From assembly GCA_977017645.1 (NCBI GenBank), contig OZ360239.1, positions 71,672,001 to 71,736,000 of the forward strand: a DNA stretch of 64,000 bases, given 5' to 3'. Shown here piece after piece: positions 18,390-60,400 of the stretch (its first letter is position 1; each line of letters starts with the position of its first letter). This DNA is from Torpedo marmorata. Taxonomy: Eukaryota. A program made the translations under genes and the position numbers. The notes beneath the pieces are model-generated. The model ran no database searches, had not been told where the DNA came from, and saw only the letters and a list, made by a program, of their open reading frames with translations.

Positions 18390-19670
18390 GGGTGCAAAGT
18401 ACAAGGTATCCAAGTTTGCAGGTGACACAAAAATAAGCGGGAGAGACTGTTGGTGATGAAGATATTAGGACTCTGCAACAGGATGTAGATGGGTTGAATG
18501 AGTGGATGAAAACTTGGCAAATCGAGTTTGTTGTGGGAAAGTTTGAGGTCATGCACTTGGGTAAGAGAATTCTAAAGGCAAACTGTCATCTAAATTGAGA
18601 AAGATTGCATAAGTAGAGAGGGATTTAGATGATTGCACAAATCACAAAATGTTAGCAGGCAGGTGCAGGAAGTGGTTAGAAAGGTAAATTGTACATTGTG
18701 CTTCATTGCAAATGAGTTGGTCTTTAGAAATGGGGAAGTCTTGTTACGATAGTACAAGGTGCTGGTGAGGCCACTCCTGGAGTATGTATGGTTTCAATCC
18801 TCTTATATACTGGCATTGAAGGCCATCCAAAAGTGATTCACAAGGCTAGCTCCTGGGGTGAGAAATTTGTTCTGTCACAAGTGGCTGAAGAACTTGGGTT
18901 CAAGATGTAATGTTGCAGCAATACCCAACTTGGAATATTGTGTTAGTTCTGGTCACCTCACTACAGGAAGGATGCGGATACTAAAGAGAGGGTGTGGAGG
19001 AGATTAACAAGATGCTGCCTGAATTGGAGAGCATGCTTTATGAGGATAGTCTGAGTGAACTTGGTCTTTTCTCCTTGGAGTGATGGAGGATGAGAGGTGA
19101 CCTGATAGTGTATAAGACGATGAGAAGCATTGATCATGTGGATGGCCAGAGGCTTTTTCCCAGGGCTGAAATGGCTAATACCAGGGGGCATAGTTTTATG
19201 GTGCTTGGGAGTAAGTACAGGGGGGACGTAAGAGGGAAGTTTTGCCACACCAGAGTTGTAGGTGCTTGGAATGCGCTGCCGGCAATGGTGGTGGGGGCAG
19301 ATCCAGTAGGATCTTTTAAGAGACTATTAAATAGGTACATGGCACAGAGAAAAATGGAGGGTTATACAGTAGGAAAATTCTAGGCAGTTGGTAGGGTAGG
19401 TTATTGGGTCGGCAAAACACTGTGGGCCGAAGGGCCTGCGCTGTGCTGTATATTTCTATATTCTTCGTTCCATATTTGGCGATTAGGAGAATGAGGCATA
19501 ATCATATTAAACACATGGGATCCTTTGGGAATAACAGGGCTGTGGAGAACTGTGAAGAGATAAGGCCAGGAGCAGGTCAGCCGTGATCGTATTGAATGGC
19601 TGGTCAGGCTAAAGATGGGGTGGGGGGGGGGGGGTGGCAGACTCCTGCTCCAACTTTCTTGGGCTCTTGT
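18390..19670 (+). mobile_element. Old CR1 fragment with a younger CR1 3' end (about 18895-19465) nested inside
   Basis: SKFAGDTK (degenerate YADDTK) at about 18410. Inner copy reads MRGDLI...LFPR...VVGAWNALP and has a (TTCTATA)-like tail. Confidence 0.75.
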
Positions 19671-34604: not shown

Positions 34605-35212
34605 TCAATCTGAATTTATTGTCATGAACATGTGTCACGAAATTCGTTGTTTTGCGGCAGCGTTATTGTGCATGACAGGTGCAAAAATTGCTATAAATTA
34701 CATTTTAAAAAAATAAATTAGGTCAAAAGAAGAGAAAAAGTGAGATAGTGTCTGTGGTTCATTGTCCATTCAGAAGTCTGATGGTGGCCGGGAAGAAGTT
34801 GTTTTTGTACCGTTGGGTGTTCGTCTTTAGGCTGCTGTACCTCCTTCCTGATGGTAGCAGTGTGAAGAGGGCATGGTGAGGGTCCTTTATGATAGAGGCT
34901 GCTTTCTTGAGACACCACCTTTTGTAGATGTCCTTAATGGAATGAAGACTGATGCCCCTGATGGCACTGGCTGAGTTCACAACTCTCTGTAGCCTTTTCC
35001 TGTCCTGTGCATTGGCACCTCTATATCAGACAGTGATGGAACCAATCAGAATGCTCTGCACGGTACACTTGTAGAAATGTGCAAGAGTCTTTGGTGACAT
35101 ACCAAATCTCCCCAAACGAAGTATAGTCACTGGCGAGCCTTCTTCATGATTGCATCGACATGAAGGCCCCAGGATAGATCTTCAGAGATGTTGACACCCA
35201 GGAATTTGAAGT
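34605..35212 (-). mobile_element. Rex1/Babar-like LINE 3' portion
   Basis: CLKKAASIIKDPHHALFTLLPSGRRYSSLKTNTQRYKNNFFPATIRLLN. Confidence 0.75.
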
Positions 35213-55440: not shown

Positions 55441-56447
55441 GTTAGTGTTGATCCCTTCTCCCCTGTAAATCTATTTACTTTTGCTGTGTTACAACATCGT
55501 GAGTCAGTGTTAGTTCTGCTTCTCGAAAGTGCCAGGTATTTTATTTCTGAAACTCTCAGCATGTTGGAAGTAGATGATACTTTTTGAAACTGTCCCATTT
55601 CTACAATTTGCAACTTTTACAGAGGCAGCAAAGCTACAAGGCATGTGGCATCAGCAGGATTTAAACCATTTAGTTCAGTGCTGGACAAACATTCTCATCT
55701 AACCATGGGTTCCTGGCCAGGATTGTCGCATAATACTAGCCATATTTTCCTTTAAGTATGTCTCGAATCAACCTGCAGCCTTTACACTGGTACTCAGTTC
55801 CAGATACAGGGATTGCTGCACTTGGAGCTGTATATAGCATCGGTTGTGGAGTGACAAGTGCTTTTGCCAAATTATGCTATTAATTTATAGTGTTGCTCCC
55901 TGGCTTGGTGCGAAATTCTTGTATAGTCTAGTGTGTAGAATTGCCAGGTGCTTTAATCTGTACTATGCACACGTGATTTGGTGTTGCACATTCGTCTGCC
56001 GTAGCCACATGGTTCATTTTGACTGTGGTCACATGGTTTGGTATGTGCTTTCACCACGGTTCACTTTATACGATTGCCATGTGGTTGATGCTTCATGTTG
56101 CTGCGTGACTTGTTTTGTACCATTCCGCGTGATCTGCTGGATACCGTTCCACATGGTTTGGTTGATGCCCTGGGTGCTGGTTTCACACGTGCTCATCAAA
56201 CTGATGCTCAGTTTGGGTTTCACGGGGTCCACTTGGCTCTCGACCAAAGAACTGATTTCCAAAAGTGATATTTATTTGTCTCCTGGCTGTAGACATCATT
56301 TTAACTGCCAGTCCTTGAAAGGTCAGATGGATTGGTGGGGTCTGACGGCACACGTGGAGCAGGCTGAGCATAGAGAGGAGCTTCCTTCCCGGCTGAATTT
56401 TAGTACAGTAAAATCCCTGTTTATCCGGAATTCAAGCAACTGGCAAC

Positions 56448-59400
56448 CATATAACCATATAACATTTACAGCACAGAAACAGGCCAGTTCGGCCCTTCAA
56501 GTCCATGCTGCACACATTCTCCCACCTAGTCCCACTGACCCGCACCCGGCCCATAACCCTCCACACCTCTCTCGTCCATATACCTATCCAACTTTTCCTT
56601 AAACATTAAAATTGAACCTGCATCTACCACTTCGGCCGGAAGCTCGTTCAACCCTCCTACCACCCTCTGAGTGAAGAAATTCCCCCTCATGTTTCCTCTA
56701 AACTTTTCCCCCTTCAATCTCAATACATGCCCTCTTGTTTGAATCTTCCCCACTCTCAATGGAAAAAGCCTGTCCACATTGACTCTATCTTTCCCCTTCA
56801 TAATTTTAAATACCTCTATCAAATCACCCCTCAACCTTCTTCGCTCCAGGGAATAAAGTCCCAGCCTGTTCAACCTTTCCCTATAACTCAAACCCAGAAA
56901 CCCAGGCAACATTGTTGTAAATCTCCTCTGCACTCTCTCTATTCTGTTTATATCCTTCCTGTAATTCGGCGACCAAAACTGCGCACAATATTCCAAATTT
57001 GGCCTCACAAATGCCTTATACAACTTCAACATGACATCCCAACTCCTATATTCAATACTCTGATTTATGAAGGCCAACATACCAAATGCTTTCTTCACCA
57101 CCCTATCTACGTGTGACTCAAGTTACAGGGAATTATGTACCAGAATTCCTAAATCCCTCTGTTCTACTGCACTTCTCAATTGTCTTCCATTTAACATGTA
57201 TGACCTTTGCTGATTAATCCTACCAAACTGTAGCACTTCACATTTATCAGTATTAAATTCCATCTGCCATGTTTCCGCCCACTCTTCTAACTGTCCTATA
57301 TCCCCCTGTAAGCTTTGATATCCCTCTTCACTGTCCACAACACCACCAATCTTCGTATCATCTGCATACTTACTAATCCAATTTACCACCCTATCATTTA
57401 GATCATTAATATATATGACAAACAACAATGGACCCAGTACCGATCCCCGAGGCACTCCACTAGTCACCGGCCTCCAATTTGACAAACAATTTTCCACCAC
57501 TACTCTCTGGCATCTCCTATCCAACCATTGTTGAATCCATTTCACTACTTCGTCGTTAATACCTAATGCTTGAACCTTCCTAACGAGCCTCTTATGCGGA
57601 ACCTTGACAAATGCCTTACTAAAGTCCATATAGACAACATCCACAGCCTTCCCCTCGTCAACCCTCTTAGTAACCTCATCGAAAAAGTCTATGAGATTTG
57701 TCAAACATGATCTACCACGAACAAAACCGTGTTGACTACTCCTAATCAATGCTTGTCTTTCCAAATAACTGTATACACCATCTCTTAGAACACTCTCCAT
57801 TAATTTACCTACCACCGATGTCAGACTCACAGGCCTATAATTTCCAGGTTTACTTTTGGAGCCCTTCTTAAACAGCAGGACAACATGAGCTACCCTCCAA
57901 TCCTCCGGCACCTCCCCCGTGGCCAGTGACATTTTAAATATTTCTGTCAGAGCCCCCACTATTTGTACACTAACCTCCCTCAGGGTCCACAGGAATATCC
58001 TGTCAGGACCTGGAGATTTATCCACCTTTATACTCTTTAAAATAGCCAATACTACCTCCTCATTAATCTTTATATTATCCATGAGCTCACTGCCAGATTT
58101 CCTTACCTCCCCTGGCTCAATATTCCTTTCCTTTGTAAATACTGAAGAAAAAAATTCATTTAAAATCTCCCCCATCTCCTCTGACTTCTCACATAGCCTA
58201 CCCGTCTGATCCTCAATGGGCCCAATTTTATCCCTCACTATTCTTTTGCTTTTAATGTACCTGTAGAAACCCTTTGGATTTATTTTTACCTTGCCTGCCA
58301 AAGCAGCCTCATATCTCCTTTTAGCCTTTATAATTTCTTTCTTAAGATTTTTTTTACACTCCTTATATTCCTCAAGGACCTCATCTATTCCCTGCTGTCT
58401 ATACCTGTTGTACACATCCTTTGAACCAAATTCCCAATATCCTTTGAAAACCAAGGCTCCCTATATTTTCTAACTCTTCCTTTAATCCTCACAGGGACAA
58501 ACCGACTCTGTACTCTCAAAATTTCCCCTTTGAGTATCCTCCATTTATCTGTGACATCCTTTCCTAAAAATAAATTATCCGAATCCTCACCCTCTAAATC
58601 CTTCCTCATCTCCTTGAAACTTGCCTTATTCCAATCAAGAATCTCAACCTTAGGCCCAGCCCTATCCTTCTCCATTATCAACCTAAAACTAATGGTATTA
58701 TGATCACTAGACCCAAAGAGTTCCCCAACACAAACCTCTGTCATCTGACCTATCTCGTTCCCAAATAGGAGATCCAATACTGCCCCCTCTCTCGTCGGTT
58801 CTTCTATGTATTGATTTAGAAAACTTTCCTGAACACATTTGACAAACTCCAACCCATCCTGCCCTATTACAGTATGGGCATCCCAGTCAATATGTGGAAA
58901 GTTAAAATCACCTATAATCACCACCTTATGTTTATTACACATATATTCTATCTCCTTACAAATTTCCTCCTCTAATTCCCTCTGCCCATTCGGTGGTCTA
59001 TAATACACTCCCATTAGTGTTTTCATGCCTTTCCCATTCCTCAATTCCACCCAAATAGCCTCACTAGACGAGCCCTCCAATCTATCCTGCCATAGCACCG
59101 CTGTAATGCTTTCTCTAACAAGCACTGCGACCCCTCCACCTTTTATCCCCCCTGTTCTATCACGCCTAAAACAACGGAATCCAGGAATATTTAGCTGCCA
59201 ATCATGCCCCTCCTGCAACCAAGTTTCACTGATGGCTACAATATCATATTTCCATGTATCAATCCATACTCTAAGCTCATCCACCTTTCTTACAATGCTC
59301 CTTGCATTGAAATATATACACTTGAGAGAATGTCCCCCACATACACTCCTTTGATTACCCTCTCCTTCATTAACTTTAACATTCTGGTTCCTCTCTTTCT

Positions 59401-60400
59401 TCAAATCTAGCTGTTCTTCTACCCTACTCTCCACATTCTCATTCTGATTCCCACCCCCCTGCCAAACTAGTTTAAACCCTCCGCAACAGCTCTAGCAAAC
59501 CTACCTGCCAGGATATTGGTCCCCCTCCAGTTCAAGTGCAGCCCGTCCCTTTTGAACAGGTCAGACCTTCCCCAGAAGAGATTCCAATGATCCACAAATG
59601 TGAACCCCTGCCCCCAGCACCAACTCTTTAGCCACACATTCATCCTCCACATCTTCCTATTCCTACCCTCTCTAGCGCGTGGCACAGGCAGCAATCCTGA
59701 GATTACCACCCTTGAGGTCCTGCTTTTTAACTTCCTTCCTAACTCTTTATATTCCTTCTTCAGGACCTCATCCCCATTTCTTTCTATGTCATTGGTCCCC
59801 ACGTGGACCACGACACCTGGCTGCTCGCCCTCCCCCTCCAGAATGCTGAGTACTCGATCAGAGACATCCCTGACCCTGGCACCTGGAAGGCAACATACCA
59901 ACCGGGAGCTCCGATCTTGTCCAGCAAACCTCCTATCTGTTCCTCTAACCAGCGAGTCCCCAATTACAAAAGCTCTCCTCTTTTCCCCCCTTCTCTTCTG
60001 AGCCGAGGGGCCATCCCCCGTGCCAGAGACCTGACCCCCGCGACTTGTCCCTGGTAGGTCCCCCCCCTCAACAGTATCCAAAACAGTATACTTATTATTG
60101 AGGGGAACGGCCACAGGGGTTCCCTGCACTGTCTGTCTACCCCCCTTCCCTTTCCTCACAGTCACCCAGTTAGCTGACTCCTGTCTATTTGGGGTGACTG
60201 TCTCCCTGAAACTCCTGTCTATGACTACCTCTGCCTCCGTCATGATCCGAAGTTCATCCAGCTGCAACTCCAGTTCCCTAACATGGTCTTGCAGGAGTTG
60301 CATCTGGATGCACCTTTTGCAGGTCTGGTCAACAGGAACATTTGTGATGTCCCTGACCTCCCACATCCTGCATTCGGAACACATGACTAACCCAACTAAC
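56448..60400 (-). mobile_element. Near-full-length CR1 LINE: ORF1 (Cys motif plus SGNH esterase) and ORF2 (APE endonuclease plus RT)
   Basis: ORF1 59467-~60400 is open: CSEC...CKRC, VIGDSLVR, VHVGTND, DGLHLN. ORF2 has YFNARS, ISETW, GDFN, SDHN and YADDTK, with one frameshift near 58400-58450 and one stop at 57123. Short tandem 3' tail (ATATGGTT)n. No 5' UTR visible. Confidence 0.95.

Follow-up and report, generated by a model that had tools for sequence, protein, structure and literature searches.

The junction between ORF1 and ORF2 of a CR1 LINE from Torpedo marmorata combines a slippery heptamer and an adjoining stop codon with a -1 register, an open linker and, at a fixed spacing, a G-rich element, and each of these is conserved at the nucleotide level. 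Comparison across copies gives strong support to the view that heptamer, stop and -1 register are kept beyond the needs of the ORF1 protein and, judged from the sequences, the junction is a real, deeply conserved signal of the recoding type. It is probable that low-level -1 frameshifting at this site yields a fusion of esterase, endonuclease and reverse transcriptase (RT). This was the original prediction for this DNA: conservation of the heptamer, stop and -1 register bears it out, a family-wide lack of an AUG does not hold and, because no canonical stimulator was found, ribosomal slippage at the heptamer is a step that we infer.

The window, by which we mean the whole 64,000-nucleotide stretch that was analysed, contains the following features of the element and its junction:

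56445..60397, minus strand: dead CR1 LINE copy whose 5' truncation falls within the first codons of ORF1; identity to sister copies about 97%
59467..60384, minus strand: ORF1 from its first remaining ATG, 305 aa, with a Cys-rich start, a coiled-coil-like stretch, a GDSL/SGNH esterase and the end Gly-Leu-Asn-stop
59492..59494, minus strand: TAG that closes the -1 (ORF2) frame five codons ahead of the heptamer; same place in 8/10 lineages
59470..59476, minus strand: slippery heptamer U_UUA_AAC in the X_XXY_YYZ register of the classic cassette
59467..59469, minus strand: ORF1 stop, adjoining the heptamer; TAG in 6/10 lineages, TAA in 4/10
59450..59463, minus strand: G-rich element from +7 to +20, with a G run from +11 to +16 (59459-59454); candidate stimulator
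59315..59469, minus strand: linker of 54 codons between heptamer and endonuclease, open in the -1 frame and free of in-frame ATGs
58385..59314, minus strand: APE-type endonuclease and the part of ORF2 that follows it, with the NARS Asn at 59308, the ETW Glu at 59227 and the first in-frame ATG at 59026
57123..58460, minus strand: RT part of ORF2, out of frame in the window copy

By domain content the element files as a canonical esterase CR1 LINE, and its junction resembles that of published consensus rows labelled CR1. ORF1 encodes a GDSL esterase (PF13472, E 8e-13), the ORF1 type expected of such a CR1, and domain matches give the APE endonuclease and RT of a canonical vertebrate CR1 ORF2, with the endonuclease matches (PF03372, PF14529) in the -1 frame and the RT (PF00078) after a break. 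A profile of the endonuclease matched L1 endonuclease structures (E 5e-11), aligning the NARS Asn and the ETW Glu, unlike a single-sequence PDB search, which returned no match. We take the L1-aligned N-terminal Asn (NARS) and the ET Glu to be catalytic residues of the endonuclease. As in canonical CR1, the 3' end is a short tandem tail without poly-A and the copies are dispersed and often 5'-truncated, with 2601 first-look candidates in the 6.2-Gb genome. The closest named homologs of ORF1 come from rays and sharks and further ones from sharks to reptiles. The window copy is dead, as it begins inside the first codons of ORF1 and its ORF2 is broken by a stop at 57125-57123 and by the loss of 7 nt near 58,420. 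Two repeats of about 15 nt, which differ by one mismatch, flank the element (approximately 60417-60403 and 56447-56432) and resemble a target-site duplication. Elsewhere in the window, 18924-19108 and 34607-34804 are older short fragments, about 70% like the RT and 3' region of the element.

On the minus strand ORF1 ends GAG GGT TTA AAC TAG, which confirms the predicted heptamer at 59476-59470, in the X_XXY_YYZ register and directly before the stop; this pattern fits 3/304 in-register positions of the window ORF1. Two further claims proved correct, namely that the -1 frame is the ORF2 frame, in which the endonuclease matches lie, and that it is closed by a TAG (59494-59492) five codons upstream. 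The five open -1 codons in between hold neither an AUG nor a near-cognate codon and, given this start-free stretch and the closure behind it, a slip is the simplest entry into the -1 frame at the heptamer, where conceptual translation reads FKL. The ORF2 frame of the window copy was said to lack an AUG until past YFNARS and ISETW, and its first ATG, at 59026, is indeed codon 150, beyond YFNARS (59314) and ISETW (Glu 59227). A start there would lose the L1-aligned N-terminal Asn and the ET Glu, because the profile alignment puts both upstream. The count of nearby AUGs needed correction from two to five: between the stop and the endonuclease four are in the ORF1 frame, as had been stated for the two, one is in the third frame and none is in the ORF2 frame.

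On the standard model a tandem slip at U_UUA_AAC would yield Leu-Asn of ORF1 followed by Leu-Val-Trp-Gln. A second in-register slippery heptamer, G_GGU_UUA, overlaps U_UUA_AAC in the window copy. We rejected this second heptamer, as it is not conserved across lineages. The upstream -1 stop may bar entry into ORF2 from upstream, or it may reflect an Ala-GCT codon followed by a polar residue. By eye, a TGA stands five codons before the heptamer in crocodilian consensus rows, and the protein set contains exceptions to this stop.

To collect copies of the junction, we searched with six diverse ORF1 proteins and with one DNA query; the first 192 loci, less 21 non-CR1 pattern matches and 2 duplicates, provided 168 genomic copies. 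The heptamer was looked for, with at most 2 mismatches, in an interval placed by an HMM that omitted the last 12 alignment columns, and it was found exactly in 147/168 genomic copies. We distinguish 10 lineages, comprising 8 multi-copy subfamilies and two single copies, L182 and L132, the latter from a metagenome contig. U_UUA_AAC followed by a stop is the modal sequence in 10/10 of these lineages, which are about 50-83% alike and are related by descent, such that lineage counts are not independent; over the ORF1 end the 8 multi-copy subfamilies are 54-83% alike. TTA is likewise modal in 10/10, as opposed to 3/52 Leu codons elsewhere in the 43 upstream codons, and AAC in 10/10, as opposed to 8/20. 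The codon before TTA AAC takes seven forms (G, S, A, D, P, H, C), every one of them ending in T, where the share of T at third positions elsewhere is 0.25. Of 10 control columns in which a degenerate residue is invariant, not one kept a single codon.

The protein record extends this pattern. Leu-Asn ends 81/88 ORF1 homologs with a DGxH tail, which are named from sharks, rays, bony fish, coelacanth, frogs, turtles and squamates. Among the 78 unique Leu-Asn tails the preceding residue has 13 forms and lacks a T-ending codon in 1/78, compared with 22% at positions -12 to -4. Three more distant cyprinid esterase proteins end otherwise than in Leu-Asn, which sets a boundary to the signal. Of the 21 motif matches listed for the consensus table of PMC13343379 (motif-selected, from the first 400 letters of each row), 18 fall at the esterase end, in rows that read as sharks, rays, chimaera, bowfin, coelacanth, frog, crocodilians and a lizard; by eye, a G run lies within about 15 nt in 16/18 of them. 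A control on spellings of Ala-Leu-Asn found the heptamer spelling 8 times, four synonymous spellings not once and a fifth 3 times. Two of these last three stand in an L2 row at a distance from any junction. In the same table SquAca_CR1-3 and SquAca_CR1-18 have a second heptamer-stop-like word, with a G-rich follow-on, in the 5' UTR.

Other collections yielded 1 viral, 10 prokaryote-genome and 11 metagenome matches to the esterase pattern, of which L132 alone is CR1; the other 21 were dropped as not CR1. An alignment scan of viral contigs returned no relative. Two shark-like CR1 proteins (P0012, P0137) come from 3-4 kb contigs assigned to Pseudomonas aeruginosa and Carnobacterium maltaromaticum, and are probably host contamination of bacterial assemblies. 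CR1 ORF1 sequence also occurs in host gene models (P0022, P0085, P0104, P0121 and P0125, covering RPS24, TMEM204, NUBP1, HAO2 and steryl-sulfatase isoforms), as either exonisation or an annotation artefact.

Conservation of this kind might have another cause: the end of ORF1 could be under protein constraint, or the site could act as an internal promoter or as a signal for splicing or RNA processing. Two observations would suit such a cause, the invariance of Leu-Asn in the protein and the purine richness of the elements, which makes G runs common. However, constraint on the protein cannot account for fixed synonymous letters or for a fixed third base in a codon that varies, a GT donor is not conserved, as the preceding codon varies, and a subgenomic RNA would remain without an AUG in 4 lineages. 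We hold an origin of this type to be very improbable.

The reading frame downstream of the heptamer is maintained along with it. In the window subfamily, 43/44 scorable copies are in the -1 frame from the heptamer, and the linker contains stops in 2/43 copies in this frame versus 42/43 and 43/43 in the other two. Between heptamer and endonuclease the modal distance is divisible by three in 7/8 multi-copy subfamilies (162, 147/156, 198, 141, 198, 156-174 and 234/237 nt) and in L132 too (99), with a range between lineages of 99-237 nt when L132 is included. An opening of the -1 frame from the shift site is modal in 8/9 multi-copy subfamilies once a ninth is included, and shuffled linkers stay open with a probability of 0.002-0.16. 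The exception is the oldest subfamily, where the modal distance is 188, 5/17 copies are in frame and indels are rife. Among 58 database proteins with at least 30 residues before the endonuclease motif, 5 carry FKL in frame 46-103 residues upstream of it, including ray and stork gene models. Searches for longer proteins gave 13 and 10 matches, which are gene models and do not amount to proof of a fusion. In contigs of four sequencing runs there was no recurrent joint across the junction among the 15 listed of 128, a result that is uninformative on translation.

The expectation that heptamer, register and missing AUG would all hold across lineages was thus realised for the heptamer-stop (10/10) and for the register (modal in 8/9 multi-copy subfamilies), and not for the AUG. 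An in-frame AUG before the endonuclease is absent from the window subfamily and three other lineages (two further subfamilies and L132), and present in 6/10. ORF2 could then be a separate protein, for which ribosomes would terminate at the ORF1 stop and reinitiate at an AUG where there is one and otherwise at a near-cognate or arbitrary codon, with the heptamer and G run serving the restart. SART1 uses UAAUG (PMC3894237), and L1 ORF2 initiation is considered AUG-independent (PMC5009743). One CR1 subfamily (L048-L060) has the SART1-type overlap, with UAAUG in 7/7 in-frame copies and the heptamer intact in 12/12. The same UAAUG overlap after the heptamer was seen in a catshark-labelled consensus row. 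Near-cognate codons are present in every linker.

Several observations nevertheless speak against reinitiation as the general route. The codon overlapping the ORF1 stop is ATG in 1/10 lineages, near-cognate in 2/10 and neither in 7/10, and the window itself lacks the UAAUG of SART1-type stop-start coupling. The linker AUGs sit at non-homologous positions (3, 9, 15, 19, 21 and 52) and shuffles predict one with a probability of 0.34-0.88, such that their frequency is close to chance; taking the 0.9% Met rate of the endonuclease itself, six AUG lineages somewhat exceed expectation. Where an AUG exists, the stretch from heptamer to AUG is still open and in register, and the T before TTA AAC is left unexplained. 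UGGGA is the calicivirus-type restart motif. It has no fixed upstream place and is absent in 4/11 representatives, and was rejected as a candidate here. Taken with the AUGs that do occur, we judge ORF2 synthesis by reinitiation to be unlikely.

The ninth subfamily (L243-L312) bears on this question from both sides. It keeps an AUG 17 nt after the stop and an intact heptamer in 65/71 copies, although its register is scattered, with 31/70 copies at any in-register length and 25/70 at the modal 27 nt. The scatter arises because the copies differ in the G run behind the stop, which ranges from 4 to more than 13 letters as opposed to G6 in the window subfamily. A derived clade of about 22 copies prefers no register, and a single out-of-register length does not unite any well-supported clade. 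This scatter is compatible with homopolymer instability as well as with AUG reinitiation. It might also be that frameshifting is ancestral and obligatory in the subfamilies without an AUG, and that some others added, or moved to, AUG reinitiation and retained the heptamer as a second route. The pairing of an intact heptamer with a close in-frame AUG in both the UAAUG subfamily (12/12) and the ninth (65/71) is in keeping with such mixed use. Against it, the AUG frequency is near the shuffle expectation, the modal junction of the ninth subfamily is in register, and the lack of a clade united by one out-of-register length fits homopolymer instability after copying. We find mixed use quite improbable, and return to frameshifting as the reading we prefer.

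The sequence downstream of the heptamer does not resemble a classic stimulator. As predicted, the G-rich tract starts after a 6-nt spacer (+7), with its G6 run at +11, and there is no clear hairpin or pseudoknot: downstream folds of the window copy gave z values of 0.47, -0.99 and 0.61, none of them significant. Among 10 representatives z fell below -2 in 1/30 downstream folds, and no conserved hairpin or pseudoknot was found 5-9 nt downstream, the pseudoknots being assessed only indirectly, from a downstream C content of 2-15%; the classic stimulator is therefore missing. The G-rich element is nonetheless constrained in place. G occupies +11 to +15 and +18 to +20 in 8-10/10 lineages, +7 in 9/10 and +8 in 8/10, all with varying encoded residues, and the G run begins at +11 in 8/11 representatives. 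A two-tier quadruplex from +7 is predicted in 5/11 representatives and absent in 6, and 1-34% of shuffles yield a quadruplex. The recurrent best long-range partner of the G tract, a C-rich stretch that lies about 643 nt upstream and codes an S/T-P-V-x-V-P-L motif, was rejected, since it is unchanged where the tract has CA replaced by TT and a motif search did not find it in 7/20 elements. A bare slippery heptamer slips only weakly. Weak slippage may suffice, as ORF2p is needed in small amounts (PMC3894237), and U_UUA_AAC is described as among the most shifty heptamers on mammalian ribosomes (PMC5009743).

Comparison with known systems places the junction between established categories. Canonical vertebrate esterase CR1 has the same esterase ORF1 and APE and RT ORF2, with the heptamer-stop in its consensus rows, and the main text of PMC13343379 gives no translation route for its ORF2. 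With the -1 cassettes of coronaviruses and retroviruses (PMC5009743) the CR1 junction shares the U_UUA_AAC register, a short overlap and the logic of a structural-to-enzyme fusion. It differs from them in that the stop adjoins the heptamer and a linear G-rich element stands in the place of a conserved pseudoknot or hairpin 5-9 nt downstream, and since the structure is missing we do not file it as a classic -1 cassette. The usual spacer is 5-9 nt, and it reaches 11-14 nt in the protein-stimulated frameshifting of arteriviruses and cardioviruses (PMC5009743), into which the G run at +11 in 8/11 representatives would fit; the CR1 element differs in being G-rich, any protein partner being hypothetical. 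The same review notes a plant virus whose frameshift needs its nearby stop, and that natural use of a G-quadruplex as a frameshift stimulator was not known in 2016. SART1 and human L1 likewise have ORF2 behind the ORF1 stop, and one CR1 subfamily has the UAAUG of SART1, whereas an overlapping AUG occurs in only 1/10 CR1 lineages and a conserved slippery heptamer is not described for either element in the passages of PMC3894237 and PMC5009743 that treat them. A frameshifting LINE would not be unprecedented, as the Dictyostelium LINEs TRE5-A and TRE3-A are stated to require a -1 frameshift for ORF2 (PMC5911963). These are APE-RT LINEs too, of amoebal origin, from another clade and with another ORF1, and we liken them to CR1 by that review's statement. 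Our literature search found no report of frameshifting in CR1, and a term search of PMC11303007, PMC2734521, PMC5006619 and PMC4316615 gave none; early full-length descriptions of chicken and turtle CR1, outside the reach of the search, may mention the overlap.

It is likely that the U_UUA_AAC-stop cassette makes a small share of ribosomes slip back by one base. In this model most ribosomes would stop at the end of ORF1 and release ORF1p, and those that slip would continue through the linker to give an esterase-linker-endonuclease-RT fusion. More speculatively, an unstructured G run, acting as a two-tier quadruplex or a protein-binding site, together with slow termination at the adjoining stop, may replace the pseudoknot as stimulator. 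On a broader scale we raise, tentatively and as something short of probable, that the RT of the dominant LINE family of non-mammalian vertebrates may have been a Gag-Pol-like ORF1-ORF2 fusion since before the split of sharks and bony vertebrates, made by a -1 frameshift that would depend, in place of a pseudoknot, on the stop next to the heptamer and on a linear G-rich element acting as a natural quadruplex or as a protein-bound stimulator, a type of cassette that would be undescribed in animal genomes.

How LINE ORF2 is translated is considered an open question (PMC3894237), and a conserved frameshift, if true, would answer it for CR1. The ratio of ORF1p to ORF2p would then be set by a retrovirus-like rule, and the working RT would carry an esterase. 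CR1 ORF2 models that start at a downstream Met would be mis-annotated or without catalytic residues, and active CR1 constructs would be built differently. With the junction in hand, the long-standing question of ORF2 translation becomes testable by one short reporter.
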